A stretch of DNA of 44,526 nt. Source: Escherichia phage vB_EcoP-101117UKE2. Each line of letters begins with the position of its first letter. The first letter of the stretch is position 1. Where the stretch lies: sequence record MZ234019.1. One strand, 5' to 3'. The notes beneath the pieces were generated by a model, which searched no databases, had not been told where the DNA came from, and saw only the letters and a program-made list of their open reading frames with translations. This document shows, piece by piece, positions 35,301 to 44,096 of the stretch. Position numbers and translations under genes: made by a program.

Positions 35301-35435
35301 GCAGTTGAGGCTGGCGACCGTTATCGTCTTCGTAGAGAAGAGCTGATGTGGTGGTGCATGAAGGCACAGAATGCTTGGATTGAATCTATTGAGGGGAGGC
35401 TGGCGAAATTAGAAGATAAACTCAAGGAGGTGTAA
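32352..35435 (+). CDS. tail fiber protein with C-terminal intramolecular-chaperone-like domain
   Basis: N-terminus resembles T7 gp17 attachment region; C-terminal CDARLK...HSGCTVQAAISVMEKHGL resembles S74-type chaperone domain; ATG 32352 overlaps upstream stop. Confidence 0.8.
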   Translation: MSYTYTDHVANGSQVTFPFRFAGRDKAYISATDVQVGFVEAGTWLPATGWTLSGTNQITFLTPPTEGKQIRIRRIVDKINPYAYFERGNVLDINSLNNSFIKNLQVSQEILDGFFPEGFYFKADLDMGGHKIINLHEGSESGDAVNYDQFKELSDRVNEIESDLTGLSHRTVPMYYIATGGESRWEIGHWTFDAAILFINGVFQNQNLGAFTISNNGFNFAEPLQKGDEVYALVGSRIAAPNEYVTISDLKDPDKAWRLIGRKYPFATDGTFMSKVVHDVDYSNLFTGATGLSQGFCIVDTPQGARMFFHQPIPSTTKVRFVETTFNPEGDNENPSVISFSQELDDIGHQTVCGVYEDGAVRLYTLSADEKSYYIIDWQGNNTSNVHMRKVQVPTEGVYSKDLFVSVGMSEDTKTLVFHATTNTQAFGNKDDARAIYLFDRKTLDSTLTRGLKRRFEVGAPAAPDMAFQGVACDDYFLYIYHGYNGVLLSHKIFVFTLSGEHVRDIPVDSVRVKYGERMYGDETLGYPVLQEPEGLAMYKGKLYMLCMDFWYKNASVVTFAGRTFATRKSSAFSGYSPLQASYWTPTKLIPPTGAPDYSKTATYSCSNATKLSKAVVSLEIDDGTGFPASIGCSLPESSASVYLNNRAMNMAIGPNENFQFGVFHQNLQSYKNLLQLNRENPNTDGSAAVWRLFGGAFTDDIQNERFVQIKHRLNPTQDAMELRADVDLTSGGGINLYSMNDSASPGRVRLYCTDGYSYWSALLSPASPSFHPDQDKTLNLGTANNRWNLVHCQGIRIISNDELQKQVFLETTRKKGALQISTSGNLGVWDSSAGTYVVATRPDGTGFSQVEMSFKGDVFPEINNTYNLGRENKAWANAYFQNAPTVVCDARLKTDARELTAAEKSAFLEISKLPAVWQWLAKLEVEGEDARLHSGCTVQAAISVMEKHGLDWTKYSAFCYDKWDAKEAVYDIVDGKAILVEEAVEAGDRYRLRREELMWWCMKAQNAWIESIEGRLAKLEDKLKEV

Positions 35436-35629
35436 TGATAAACTCCGAACTGGTAGATAATGGTGTGAAGCTGGCGCCACCTGCATTAGTCTCAGGTGGG
35501 TACTTCCTCGGTATCAGTTGGGACAATTGGGTACTGATAGCAACATTCATTTATACAGTGTTGCAGATTGGCGATTGGTTCTATACTAAATATACAATAT
35601 GGAGGAATAAGCATGAGCGTGCACAATAA
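35435..35629 (+). CDS. class II holin (T7 gp17.5-like, 64 aa)
   Basis: LGISWDNWVLIATFIYTVLQIG matches T7 gp17.5 FGLSLNEWFYVAAIAYTVVQIG; same position between fiber and terminase. Confidence 0.8.
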   Translation: MINSELVDNGVKLAPPALVSGGYFLGISWDNWVLIATFIYTVLQIGDWFYTKYTIWRNKHERAQ

Positions 35630-35912
35630 ACATGCAGCCACAGAGGATGAAGTAGGCATCCTTCATGGCGCTATTACGAAGATGTTTAATAAGAAAGCAC
35701 AGGCTATACTGGACACTATAGAAGAAGACCCTGATTCTGCTATGCACTTAGTGTCAGGTAAGGATATTGGAGCCATGTGTAAGTGGGTTTTAGATAATGG
35801 CATTACTGCAACCCCTGCTGCACAGCAGGAAGAATCTAAGTTGTCTAAGCGTCTCAAGGCTATCCGAGAGGCGTCCAGTGGTAAGATCATTCAGTTTACT
35901 AAGGAGGATTAA
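35613..35912 (+). CDS. terminase small subunit (putative)
   Basis: Synteny with T7 gene 18; ATG 35613 with GGAGG RBS (track start 35568 overlaps holin). Confidence 0.6.
   Translation: MSVHNKHAATEDEVGILHGAITKMFNKKAQAILDTIEEDPDSAMHLVSGKDIGAMCKWVLDNGITATPAAQQEESKLSKRLKAIREASSGKIIQFTKED
35704..35726 (+). promoter_or_regulatory. promoter-like site CTATACTGGACACTATAGAAGAA inside small terminase gene
   Basis: 15 of 17 upstream positions plus initiating region match consensus. Confidence 0.35.
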
Positions 35913-37808: not shown

Positions 37809-37831
37809 ATTTACTGGACACTATAGGAGGA
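37809..37831 (+). promoter_or_regulatory. phage RNAP promoter ATTTACTGGACACTATAGGAGGA with AT-rich structured leader
   Basis: Consensus match; followed by about 130-nt AT-rich leader sharing motifs with 3730-3871. Confidence 0.8.
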
Positions 37832-37965: not shown

Positions 37966-38247
37966 ATGGCTAATGATTATAGTAATCAGCCCTTAACTGG
38001 TCGCTATGACCGTAAACAGATTACACCAACTAGTGAAGCGTTAATGCTCCCTGTTGTTACAGAGGAGTCTATTAAGAAGAAAGCCAATGTTATCAATGAT
38101 GCAACCAAATCTGGTAAACAGAAAGCAGCAATGGTGTGTCGTCCTGTAGGTGGCACTCTTGAGATTGCCATTGCTACTGGCAGCAAAGAGGATGCAGATT
38201 GGTTGTCTGTTAAAATGGATGGCGTTGGTCTTATTACACCGGCTTAA
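37966..38247 (+). CDS. hypothetical protein, tandem paralog 1 of 3 (93 aa)
   Basis: AAGGAG RBS; shared motif SGKQKAAMV...IAIATGSKEDADW. Confidence 0.65.
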   Translation: MANDYSNQPLTGRYDRKQITPTSEALMLPVVTEESIKKKANVINDATKSGKQKAAMVCRPVGGTLEIAIATGSKEDADWLSVKMDGVGLITPA

Positions 38248-38264: not shown

Positions 38265-38552
38265 ATGTCTAAGTATGGCGATGCAGGTACTACTACTGGT
38301 CAGGCTTTTCGTGTAAAAGCAGTACAAACTATTGCAACTGCAATCCCTATGCCTATCGTGGCAGAAGTTGACCTTAAAAAGAAAGATCATCCAATTAATA
38401 TTGAACACCTATCTGGTAAGCAGAAAGGTGCTATGGTGGTTGTAGATAAAGGAGATAATAGCCTTTATATTGCTATTGCACGTGGTTCTGCACCAACTGA
38501 CCAGTGGGATGTAACTACTATGGAAGCTGTACCTGTAACACCAGGAGCTTAA
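38265..38552 (+). CDS. hypothetical protein, tandem paralog 2 of 3 (95 aa)
   Basis: AAGGAG RBS; shared motif SGKQKGAMV...IAIARGSAPTDQW. Confidence 0.65.
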   Translation: MSKYGDAGTTTGQAFRVKAVQTIATAIPMPIVAEVDLKKKDHPINIEHLSGKQKGAMVVVDKGDNSLYIAIARGSAPTDQWDVTTMEAVPVTPGA

Positions 38553-38553
38553 T

Positions 38554-39243
38554 ATGCTGGGAGTAACAGGACAACGCAATAAGAATGTAGCCACCAAAGT
38601 AGTGGCTGATTTAGCTACTGCTGCTACTGTCGAGGGATTACGAGACACACATAGCTCTATTAACCGTGCTGACCTTTCTGGTAAACAAGAAGGTTCCGCT
38701 GTTATTGTTAAGAAAGAAGATGGGAATTATTCTATCTTTGTAGCAACAGGAAGCAAGCCGACTGATGTGTGGAAAGAGTTGTCTCCAACAATACCAGAGC
38801 AAGAGATGCCTGCTGAATATATTGATATGATTGATGTTCAAATTCATCAAGATTCTGCAAGCAACTTACGTATAGACTCTTCTCGCACTAGTTTAATACA
38901 AACACCAATGTGGGATACTGAAGGTGAGTTGTTATTCCGTAATACACTAAGTGCAACATGTTCTTGTACTATTCTTGTTGATGGTGCGTCTGGTGTTCGT
39001 CAGGATTTTACTTTTAAGATTAATGGACTTTTAGAGCAGGAAGAGCAGTATTATGATATTGACACACTTATGTGCTCTATTCACTCTGCAACAACAACTA
39101 ATGGCCTTACCTTGTGTATGCCAGATGCTAAAAGTGCAAAGACTAATAAAGTGGTAGTTAAGATCGACACTATGCAGTCATTAGCTATGAGCTTTGATCT
39201 TAACTTCCTTGTAGAATGGACGTCACCAACGAGGTTACTATAA
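38554..39243 (+). CDS. hypothetical protein, tandem paralog 3 of 3 with extra C-terminal domain (229 aa)
   Basis: AGGAG RBS; shared motif SGKQEGSAVIV...IFVATGSKPTDVW. Confidence 0.65.
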   Translation: MLGVTGQRNKNVATKVVADLATAATVEGLRDTHSSINRADLSGKQEGSAVIVKKEDGNYSIFVATGSKPTDVWKELSPTIPEQEMPAEYIDMIDVQIHQDSASNLRIDSSRTSLIQTPMWDTEGELLFRNTLSATCSCTILVDGASGVRQDFTFKINGLLEQEEQYYDIDTLMCSIHSATTTNGLTLCMPDAKSAKTNKVVVKIDTMQSLAMSFDLNFLVEWTSPTRLL

Positions 39244-39587
39244 TGCTAAATCAATACTTCAAGCGTAAAGAATTTGCTTGCCGTTGTGGGTGCGGTACAT
39301 CCACTGTTGATGCTGAATTACTACAGGTAGTCACAGATGTGCGTGAGCACTTTGGTTCCCCTGTAGTTATCACTTCGGGGCATCGCTGTGCTAAGCACAA
39401 TGCTAATGTAGGAGGAGCTAAGAACTCCATGCATCTTACTGGTAAGGCTGCTGACATTAAGGTACGAGGCATCTTACCTTCTGATGTACATAAGTATCTT
39501 ACTGATAAGTACCAAGGCAAGTATGGTATTGGTAAATATACCTCCTTTACTCATATTGATGTACGTGACGGGTGTGCACGATGGTAG
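39243..39587 (+). CDS. endolysin, peptidase M15 family zinc peptidase (114 aa)
   Basis: FKRKEFACRCGCG and SGHRC..HN..VGG..S.H..GKAADI signature; ATG overlaps upstream stop (TAATG). Confidence 0.8.
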   Translation: MLNQYFKRKEFACRCGCGTSTVDAELLQVVTDVREHFGSPVVITSGHRCAKHNANVGGAKNSMHLTGKAADIKVRGILPSDVHKYLTDKYQGKYGIGKYTSFTHIDVRDGCARW

Positions 39588-39695
39588 GTTGTGTTGCATG
39601 GTGTGAACGCATGGTTGCTAAGGCTTCAGAGGAAGGTAACTATGAAGATTGGCAGAACTATTCAACTTTATTAGCTCAATGGAAAGGGAGATGCA

Positions 39696-39845
39696 ATGAA
39701 AAAGCTGTTCAAGTCTAAGAAGGTTGTAGGTGCACTAGTTGCATTGGCAATTGCTCTTGTTTCTGTAGGTCTTGGTGTAGACCTTGGCTCTGGCACGGAA
39801 TCCTCTGTGACAGATGTGGTCTGCCAAGTGATCACCTGTGAATAA
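39696..39845 (+). CDS. small membrane protein (49 aa), lysis-associated candidate
   Basis: GGGAG RBS; N-terminal basic plus hydrophobic segment. Confidence 0.4.
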   Translation: MKKLFKSKKVVGALVALAIALVSVGLGVDLGSGTESSVTDVVCQVITCE

Positions 39846-40059
39846 GTTTCTAGAAGTGCTGGCAGGTCTTATTGGCCTGCTTGTCTCTGCTAAGAAGAAA
39901 CAAGAAGAGAAGGAGGCACAAAGTGAAGCGAATCATGTTAGCGATGACCCTGCTGGTTGGTTCGCTGATCACTTCCGGGTGTCAGCAGGCGCTACCAGAG
40001 AAGAAGGGTGTGAAGCCGCTGAAGCCGACGCTGACGGCAGTTTACGAAGTGGACGATAA
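39838..40059 (+). CDS. i-spanin-like protein (putative)
   Basis: GTG start coupled to upstream stop; N-terminal TM segment FLEVLAGLIGLLVSA then charged region; contains o-spanin candidate in another frame. Confidence 0.35.
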   Translation: MNKFLEVLAGLIGLLVSAKKKQEEKEAQSEANHVSDDPAGWFADHFRVSAGATREEGCEAAEADADGSLRSGR

Positions 40060-40132
40060 GGTCTGCTTCAGTAAGCCTGACGCTACACAATTAGGTTTGT
40101 ATATTCTTTCGCTAGAACGCGGGTATAATTAA
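39923..40132 (+). CDS. o-spanin-like outer-membrane lipoprotein (putative)
   Basis: GTG 39923 with AGGAGG RBS; signal peptide KRIMLAMTLLVGSLITSGC with lipobox-like TSGC, Pro-rich mature region. Confidence 0.5.
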   Translation: MKRIMLAMTLLVGSLITSGCQQALPEKKGVKPLKPTLTAVYEVDDKVCFSKPDATQLGLYILSLERGYN

Positions 40133-40161: not shown

Positions 40162-40184
40162 ATTTACTGGACACTATAGAAGGA
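40162..40184 (+). promoter_or_regulatory. phage RNAP promoter ATTTACTGGACACTATAGAAGGA upstream of tailspike
   Basis: Consensus match. Confidence 0.85.
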
Positions 40185-43591: not shown

Positions 43592-43742
43592 GGTAAAGGC
43601 TGGCACTAGTCAGCCTATCAAGGCGCAAACCAAGCTCTTTAACAATTTGGATGGTAGCTTCTTAGTCTGGATAGGTTAAACCTAGGAGATTCTCTTGAGT
43701 CTCCTATAATGTAACCTAACTAACTAAATGAGGATTAATAAC

Positions 43743-44096
43743 ATGGCTATGTCTAATATGACTTACTCTCAGGTTTACAACACCGCTCATGCTGCATTAG
43801 TTGAACGTATCTGGAATGATGCTATTGATTGTATCGATAACGCACATGATGCAATCCATGAGGTAGCGGACAGTGCTGTACCAATCTATTATGCTGACAT
43901 CTTCTCAGTGATGGCGAGTGAAGGTATTGATCACTTCTTCGAAGACTCCGGCCTGATGCCAGATACTAAGGATGTAACGGTCGTACTACAAGCCCGTATC
44001 TATGAACAACTCACCATTGATTTATGGGAACGTGTTCAAGATATGATTGTTGCGTACACCACTTACGCTGATTATTCAGAAGAAGAGGAAGAATAA
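43743..44096 (+). CDS. ocr: Ocr-like anti-restriction DNA-mimic protein (117 aa)
   Basis: MAMSNMTY start and [52 protein letters not shown] match recalled T7 gp0.3; acidic C-terminus; GAGG RBS. Confidence 0.9.

Follow-up and report, generated by a model that had tools for sequence, protein, structure and literature searches.

The window analyzed here is the 44,526-nucleotide (nt) sequence of Escherichia phage vB_EcoP-101117UKE2 (MZ234019.1), and its lysis region at positions 39243 to 40132 is an ordinary, already catalogued SP6/K1E-like lysis cassette, with nothing new in its biology relative to SP6, K1-5, K1E, and UAB_Phi78. Downstream of the endolysin gene, four open reading frames (ORFs) are closely packed: a 45-amino-acid (aa) ORF, followed by those of a small membrane protein (a), a protein at the position of an inner-membrane spanin (i-spanin; c), and a lipoprotein resembling an outer-membrane spanin (o-spanin; d) (Table 1). 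Our confidence is high that a, c, and d are real genes of a known SP6-type cassette, which settles an odd-looking three-frame region as real coding sequence. As to function, we lean slightly toward c and d acting together as a compact spanin-like pair of the overlapped type and toward a being a holin-family protein.

Three reading frames with three conserved genes

The a, c, and d ORFs lie in frames 0, 1, and 2, respectively (39696, 39838, and 39923 modulo 3). A model that read the letters of the window (the original prediction) had described them as overlapping in all three frames and suspected either a frameshift or sequencing error or an unusual embedded-gene arrangement. The assignment to three frames holds, but the overlaps are only pairwise, of 8 nt between a and c (GTGAATAA) and of 137 nt between c and d, and at no single site do all three ORFs overlap together. 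Megablast finds the region in 114 phage records and blastn in 123. Escherichia phage vB_EcoP-101118B1 (MZ234020.1; Autographiviridae, Molineuxvirinae, Vectrevirus) is 100% identical to the window over its own coordinates, DNA identity to the window is 90% for K1-5, 85% for K1E, and 77% for SP6, and further relatives with the region are Klebsiella, Citrobacter, Raoultella, and Proteus phages.

Frame conservation was assessed in 16 annotated relatives and in a set of 32 distinct Escherichia, Salmonella, Klebsiella, and Proteus phage sequences. All three ORFs were present, with unchanged relative frames, in each of the 16 annotated relatives. The three frames were likewise kept throughout the 32 distinct sequences, with c open over 61 to 73 codons and its GTG located 8 nt before the a stop in every case. 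Selection was measured as pN/pS (Nei-Gojobori) on 16 indel-free sequences. The segment occupied by a only yielded a pN/pS of 0.15 in the a frame, and that occupied by c only (39847-39921) 0.27 in the c frame, the other two frames exceeding 2.6 and containing stops. Where c runs over the d signal peptide (39922-39981), pN/pS was 0.15 in the c frame versus 1.0 in the d frame; where the c tail runs over the N-terminal part of mature d (39982-40056), the values were 1.03 for c and 0.54 for d. Finally, pN/pS in the d frame was 0.09 over the d-only segment. All 32 sequences taken together left this picture unchanged. Purifying selection acts on each frame within the segment that belongs to it, and the overlap places the constrained part of each gene over the tolerant part of the other. 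Given these segment-wise ratios, c is a real protein, the functional part of which is residues 1 to 48.

A sequencing or assembly frameshift that split one longer i-spanin gene into three frames would draw on the odd appearance of a short ORF in each of three frames, beyond which nothing was found in its support. Against it stand the identical layout, coupled GTG included, in 32 distinct and independently sequenced relatives of several genera, as well as the separate purifying selection in each frame with stops in the other frames. A single continuous i-spanin ORF was looked for among the relatives examined and occurred in none, so the probability of such an error is close to nil. The embedded form of spanin genes is that of lambda Rz/Rz1; the arrangement found here is instead the common overlapped spanin architecture, which recurs in many unrelated cassettes.

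Other accounts of the frames were also discarded. Conservation of c as a by-product of the signal peptide or Shine-Dalgarno (SD) sequence of d is at odds with substitutions that are synonymous in the c frame and not in the d frame, and with the variability of d signal peptides. A programmed frameshift from a into c would generate a fusion of fitting topology, similar to a holin with two transmembrane domains (TMDs), but no slippery sequence exists at 39830-39845. The fusion is further excluded by the conserved start codon of c itself (ATG in Erwinia phage VL73) and by distant cassettes that carry a full two-TMD holin plus c.

The c/d pair in other phages

A search of word-indexed clusters recovered c in SP6-like phages only (69 clusters). 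A full hidden Markov model (HMM) scan of 1.84 billion representatives at E <= 1e-3 returned 164 c clusters, nearly all of 60 to 90 aa and with end-to-end matches, which belong to no Pfam family and match phrog_9219 only. Three distant c members are located directly 3' of an endolysin gene (M15_3 in L049, Amidase_3 in L052) and a small membrane protein gene; the membrane protein encoded 5' of c in L049 and L052 is a two-TMD holin. All three have, in the +1 frame, a lipoprotein that matches phrog_8971 (E of about 1e-15) and ends in LGKYLLQLERGYK. Scanning IMG/VR with a degenerate DNA motif of c produced 26 matches, 4 of them false and 22 true c genes, 19 of which were distinct. In each of these 19 loci, the +1 frame encodes a lipoprotein that has a lipobox and ends in an LE(R)GY-type C terminus, and each locus reproduces the geometry of the window, with c directly upstream of d and overlapping it. 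The d start is fixed at about codon 29 to 31 of c in all lineages examined. The gene 5' of c in the distant cassettes usually encodes a holin-like protein of 58 to 80 aa, and its stop overlaps or abuts the c start.

Pseudomonas MR4-like phages and Erwinia phage VL73 keep a, c, and d, in the three frames, alongside another endolysin type, with an ATGA/GTGA junction at c and the d lipobox LVAC. Klebsiella phage HY (vB_KpnP_HY, PV369459.1; L014 1763-1919) lacks both c and d; its a gene is intact, and the a stop is followed directly by an SP6-type promoter. On these comparisons, c and d are a widespread and obligately overlapped pair. Considering gene order, overlap geometry, and the strict co-occurrence over the roughly 25 loci examined, c is probably the partner of d at the place of an i-spanin, and we infer an i-spanin role for it on these grounds.

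Protein d, a predicted outer-membrane lipoprotein

The d start is most probably GTG 39923, 6 nt past an AAGGAGG motif within the c coding sequence. The signal peptide that begins there is MKRIMLAMTLLVGSLITSG, followed by the lipobox Cys and a mature protein of 50 aa. The supplement of Kongari et al. 2018 (BMC Bioinformatics 19:326, PMC6139136) uses the same SD sequence and GTG for d in its K1-5 and K1E entries. ATG 39935, chosen in GenBank, would remove the charged n-region of the signal peptide and is the less likely start. TTG 39872, which opens an 86-aa ORF, was rejected on account of stops 5' of 39923 in many relatives, pN/pS above 2.6, and the position of the SD sequence in front of GTG 39923.

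Mature d consists of a Pro/Lys linker and a conserved C-terminal beta-beta-alpha mini-domain. Across 23 diverse d homologues, two Cys residues, one of them the lipid carrier, and the L..Y(I)..LE(R) core of a C-terminal LGLYILxLERGY motif are invariant or nearly so. The suspicion that its lipobox is atypical did not hold: I-T-S-G-C is compatible with the PROSITE lipoprotein rule, and distant homologues have LVAC, LTAC, or LAGC. A lipoprotein without Asp at position +2 is sorted to the outer membrane; in the window, this residue is Gln, and the homologues have Q, G, S, A, N, V, K, L, or T there but never Asp. With its signal peptide, lipobox and invariant Cys, no Asp at +2, and an overlap with a partner gene within a lysis cassette, d has the predicted features of an o-spanin, as originally proposed. 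The AlphaFold2 (AF2) model of d has a mean pLDDT of 80, rising above 90 for residues 31 to 60, and its C terminus folds into a beta-hairpin (40-43, 46-49) plus an amphipathic helix (51-65), with pLDDT above 90. A fold search with this model returned no Protein Data Bank (PDB) match at E <= 0.001. No TMD was found in the C-terminal part of d, where the longest hydrophobic run is LGLYILSL. We therefore discarded a unimolecular spanin of the T1 gp11 type, which would need a C-terminal TMD beside the N-terminal lipobox; d ends instead in the hairpin and amphipathic helix.

Proteins c and a

The GTG start of c at 39838 indeed lacks a ribosome-binding site, as first noted; it is placed inside the end of a, and c is predicted to be translated by coupling to a. 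Constraint on c extends over residues 1 to 48 only, followed by a neutral, variable tail that brings the total length to 61 to 73 aa. The AF2 model comprises helices at residues 3 to 36 and 38 to 45 and falls below pLDDT 50 over residues 51 to 73, a stretch modeled as probably disordered. Searches for remote homology of c yielded no credible Pfam match and only a few sub-threshold chance matches, phrog_9219, with no labeled function, being the only significant PHROG. In a few distant c members, a hydrophobic stretch extends over 20 residues, with a D-K pair at its center.

Protein a has a clear predicted TMD, in agreement with the small membrane protein that had been called among the three ORFs. 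It is laid out as a K-rich N terminus, a 19-residue TMD, and a tail of about 21 residues with an invariant C-x4-C. The TMD scores KD19 2.15 to 2.8 over 24 variants, with an uncharged run of 17 to 19 residues (19 in 23 of the 24). The K-rich N-flank and uncharged run are those of the N-terminal type II TMD of an i-spanin, but the roughly 21 periplasmic residues fall short of a spanning length. Neither is a constantly associated with an o-spanin: it is absent from most c/d cassettes and retained where d is deleted.

The match of a to phrog_4712 (annotated as holin) has an E of 3e-27. In hhalign, a matches the two-TMD holins (phrog_34682 type) that precede c/d elsewhere with 95.6% probability (E 1.2e-8, 41 columns), its residues 2 to 43 aligning with the holin N-tail, TMD1, and loop, and the two-TMD holins of other cassettes give weak reciprocal matches to phrog_4712. 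Both occupy the same gene position, with the same stop-start junction to c. No second TMD exists in a, the tail of which (VTDVVCQVITCE) is too short to cross the membrane; intermediate forms of the a/holin type, of 50 to 53 aa, occur in L063 and L078. Because of the hhalign score, the shared position, and these intermediates, a is best read as a truncated member of the two-TMD holin family at the holin position. Compared with class II-like two-TMD holins, a lacks TMD2 and ends in a short Cys tail, and holin activity is putative for both.

Relation to catalogued lysis cassettes and to annotation

The lysis genes of SP6, K1-5, K1E, and UAB_Phi78 are among the catalogued entries of Kongari et al. 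2018 (PMC6139136) and among those described by Bardina et al. 2016 (PMC4837284). The likeness to the window extends to the same genes at the same positions, with DNA identity of 77 to 90%; the comparison with SP6 and K1-5 that the original prediction had proposed returned the same three-frame layout. Counterparts are SP6 gp39 for the holin, SP6 gp46 for the endolysin, SP6 gp47 and K1-5 gp44 for a, SP6 gp48 for c, and K1-5 gp45 for d. Reports on SP6 had already described its T7-like holin (gp39), the distribution of the lysis genes over two loci, and the missing T7 gp18.5; they treat gp46 as a putative M15_3 endolysin that lacks biochemical proof. In the entries of Kongari et al. 2018 (PMC6139136), K1-5, K1E, and SP6 have "separated" spanins, with a as the i-spanin ("Too small?") and d as the o-spanin ("Too short"), UAB_Phi78 has an "overlapped" pair whose i-spanin, of 69 aa, is homologous to c, and the overlapped architecture is listed for 228 of 677 phages. 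The catalogue is internally inconsistent here, since all four genomes encode both a and c; hence, the only curated spanin catalogue gives the inner-membrane partner to two nonhomologous genes within one phage group.

Annotations diverge similarly. In PHROGs, the labels are "holin" for a, "unknown" for c, and "Rz-like spanin" for d, and the UniRef name of this very d protein is "O-spanin". Only c is called in SP6 (gp48), ACG-C91 (gp05), and the K1E record KY435490, and only d in K1-5 (gp45) and AAPEc6 (gp49), whereas both are called in Pm5460, Nufs112, and PP99. The annotation of Pantoea phage Nufs112 gives a as a transmembrane protein, c as Rz-like, and d as Rz1-like. GenBank MZ234020.1 has a, takes d from ATG 39935 and the endolysin from 39216, and omits c. 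Our analysis corrects this record on the missing c, the shifted d start, and an endolysin start placed 27 nt too early. A shortened SP6 gp48 (the c protein, P0044, 65 aa) is labeled "o-spanin" by one source although it has no lipobox, evidently a mix-up; the true lipoprotein ORF of SP6 (L004 1534-1743) is unannotated in NC_004831.2.

Overlapped two-component spanins such as P2 LysB/LysC resemble c/d in that the upstream gene overlaps a +1-frame lipoprotein gene with a holin and an endolysin nearby, and in the small lipoprotein with a Pro-containing linker, a periplasmic Cys, and no Asp at +2. They differ in that c has no convincing TMD, only some 48 constrained residues, and no evident long coiled coil. 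Together, c and d are also much shorter than Rz plus Rz1, and searches of Pfam and PHROGs revealed no sequence resemblance to Rz, LysB, or T7 gp18.5.

A more distant parallel is Vibrio phage VP4/ICP3, listed as a "separated spanin" pair of the VP4 family in Kongari et al. 2018 (PMC6139136). VP4 (NC_007149.1, L048 6623-6969) encodes an unannotated 49-aa a homologue (phrog_4712) that shares the GVDL motif and the C-x4-C tail with a and adjoins a 65-aa lipoprotein in a T7-like genome with a 17.5-type holin. The VP4 pair differs in its location, which is flanked by terS and terL and corresponds to that of T7 genes 18.5/18.7 (Rz), in having no c-like ORF, and in a lipoprotein of phrog_10167. The a homologue scored 28.6 bits against the a profile and E 1.9e-23 against phrog_4712; BLASTP of a against the VP4 protein gave no match, and a profile search was needed.

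Proposed action of the cassette and alternatives

In the reading that we slightly favor, a module of endolysin, holin, c, and d, which many unrelated phages share, would have been added, under its own phage promoter 3' of the terminase genes, to a T7-like genome that kept the gene-17.5 holin and is without the T7 amidase and Rz/Rz1. The holin (T7-type, possibly helped or timed by a) would open the inner membrane, the signal-less endolysin would then gain access to the peptidoglycan and cut it, and c/d would disrupt the outer membrane much as overlapped two-component spanins do. Protein d would be lipid-anchored in the outer membrane, with its beta-beta-alpha domain touching the conserved DPxxWFxxHF of c. 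We infer the membrane topology of c, its contact with d, and the choice of functional holin. Calling c i-spanin-like, as the original prediction did, is borne out by gene order and overlap, but not by its N-terminal helix, which throughout the family lacks the length or the hydrophobicity of a canonical TMD.

Several observations weigh against this reading. The hydrophobic run of c in the window is limited to 12 uncharged residues between E6 and K19 (KD19 1.25); across the family, KD19 is 0.65 to 1.46 versus 2.2 to 2.8 for a, the uncharged run is 6 to 12 residues in most members, and many have charged residues in the middle of the helix. A K-rich flank C-terminal to the helix favors an orientation with the C terminus in. 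Past the helix, c has only about 30 constrained residues and a neutral tail; no long coiled-coil periplasmic domain was found, constraint ending at residue 48 and the AF2 helices giving way to disorder, and c plus d are far shorter than known periplasm-spanning pairs. The curators' own flags ("too small?", "too short") and their choice of a, not c, as the i-spanin of K1-5, K1E, and SP6 in the catalogue entries (Kongari et al. 2018, PMC6139136) point the same way, as does the VP4 homologue of a in the T7 Rz/Rz1 slot without c, which keeps a alive as an i-spanin. Literature searches turned up no experiments on SP6-type a, c, or d.

Some of these points would be explained if the spanin pair were a plus d, with a as a type II inner-membrane protein whose Cys tail binds d or is disulfide-linked to it, and with c in an accessory or regulatory role, e.g., as a cytoplasmic or peripheral antiholin-like protein. 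The only unambiguous TMD belongs to a, which also has a K-rich N-in end and a conserved periplasmic C-x4-C tail, the helix of c makes a poor TMD, the catalogue supplement assigns the i-spanin and o-spanin roles to a and d in the three phages named (Kongari et al. 2018, PMC6139136), and in VP4 a small lipoprotein lies directly next to the a homologue in the T7 Rz slot, with no c. We nonetheless consider this pairing unlikely. The periplasmic part of a amounts to about 21 residues, a size that left the curators themselves doubtful; a is missing from most c/d cassettes, where the two-TMD holin to which it aligns replaces it; it is intact in phage HY, which has lost d; the VP4 lipoprotein (phrog_10167) is not a d homologue; and the conserved C-terminal domain of d co-occurs with the c motif, not with a. 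Alternatively, a, c, and d could form a three-part envelope complex, in which a is the anchor, c is coupled to it and bound through an amphipathic helix, and d is the outer-membrane end. The a/c stop-start overlap is kept in every SP6-like, MR4-like, and VL73-like genome, the holin-c junction is overlapped or abutting in most distant cassettes, the c/d geometry is fixed, and the weak helix of c could gain stability by pairing with a TMD. This proposal looks improbable, however: a full two-TMD holin stands 5' of c elsewhere, so that the coupling may reflect operon compaction only, and VP4 has an a homologue without c.

A further and tentative possibility is that c/d (phrog_9219 plus phrog_8971) is a distinct, widespread miniature module for outer-membrane disruption, the mechanism of which would be unlike that of Rz/Rz1. 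Protein c could then be without a true transmembrane anchor, as a cytoplasmic or peripheral amphipathic helix that meets d after holin opening or acts with a. Were this true, the published i-spanin assignment for SP6, K1-5, and K1E would be mistaken, and a function would be gained for a family that has no Pfam entry and comprises more than 160 clusters. A demonstration that c partners d without a proper membrane anchor would widen the picture of how phages breach the outer membrane; otherwise, this is a routine lysis cassette.

Holin, endolysin, and locus layout

The T7 gp17.5-type holin was confirmed at its canonical position, between a tail gene (coding sequence ending at 35435) and terS (35613-35912), as is T7 gene 17.5. 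It matches PF10746 (Phage_holin_2_2) over residues 4 to 59 (E 7.6e-28, 96.5 bits, cutoff 25.4) and phrog_920 "holin" (E 1.1e-26). The M15-type endolysin and the spanin-like genes were likewise found 3' of the terminase genes, as proposed. The endolysin matches PF08291 (E 8.6e-33, 113.2 bits, cutoff 23.2) and phrog_894 "endolysin" (E 5.1e-44), and it contains putative zinc-ligand motifs of the H-x6-D ... H type (SMHLTGKAAD, FTHID), as read from the sequence; its match to the solved M15 enzyme 1lbu is only weak (E 1.9e-4). No signal or signal-arrest-release (SAR) sequence and no hydrophobic segment were found in it (maximum KD19 0.71). Since it has no hydrophobic N-terminal segment, the endolysin is predicted to be of the cytoplasmic, holin-dependent type and not secreted or SAR. 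Its ATG at 39243 overlaps the upstream stop (TAATG), is preceded by GAGG, and is equivalent to the start of the annotated 114-aa (345-nt) endolysins of K1-5 and AAPEc6. The GenBank start at 39216, 27 nt upstream, is less likely.

Table 1. Features of the lysis region and associated elements in the window
Feature	Coordinates	Strand	Remarks
T7 gp17.5-family holin, 64 aa	35435..35629	+	Pfam PF10746 and phrog_920; GenBank "class II holin"
Phage RNA-polymerase promoter, 5' end of lysis transcription unit	37811..37829	+	Matches TTACTGGACACTATAGAAG; just past terL stop
Endolysin, Peptidase_M15_3 zinc peptidase, 114 aa	39243..39587	+	Pfam PF08291 and phrog_894
Soluble Cys-containing small ORF, 45 aa	39581..39718	+	phrog_1312, E 1.3e-17
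a, 49-aa single-pass membrane protein	39696..39845	+	SD AGGGAG 39685-39690; phrog_4712
c, 73 aa, i-spanin position	39838..40059	+	phrog_9219; GTG start, no SD; unannotated in GenBank record
SD AAGGAGG for d, within c coding sequence	39910..39916	+	Read from sequence
d, 69-aa prolipoprotein	39923..40132	+	phrog_8971 "Rz-like spanin", E 5.9e-37; UniRef "O-spanin"
Next phage promoter (tailspike gene), bounds lysis unit at 3' end	40164..40182	+	Exact promoter-consensus match

Pseudomonas MR4-like phages, Erwinia VL73, Pantoea Nufs112, and Pectobacterium PP99 (L044-L047, L053, L054) keep a, c, and d and have the M15 endolysin replaced by enzymes of another type, of 150 to 185 aa (a lytic transglycosylase in the PP99 annotation); some of these have a hydrophobic N terminus that could be a SAR signal. 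These loci are cases of endolysin swapping inside a fixed cassette.

The 45-aa ORF shares 7 nt with the end of the endolysin gene and 23 nt with the start of a. Its pN/pS is 0.46 in its own frame versus about 1 in the other frames. Because two relatives have internal stops in it and SP6 has it out of frame, it may be dispensable. The Pseudomonas MR4 locus encodes a homologue of it that is listed under DUF8272.

Ten matches to the TTACTGGACACTATAGAAG promoter occur in the window, versus 0.03 expected by chance; a scan of the region for sigma-70 promoters and terminators gave nothing above chance. Three successive paralogous genes, at 37966-38247, 38265-38552, and 38554-39243, each match phrog_2725 and phrog_32357, and the PHROG label "acetyl-CoA acetyltransferase" on them seems to be a misnomer that has been passed on. 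The Erwinia VL73 locus (L047) contains a faint Phage_head_fibr match in the 149-aa product of a nearby gene (300-749), which is not a counterpart of these paralogues. Finally, the early gene for Ocr (gp0.3) is found at 43728-44096, close to the right end of the record, so that the deposited linear sequence appears permuted relative to the usual T7-like left end.

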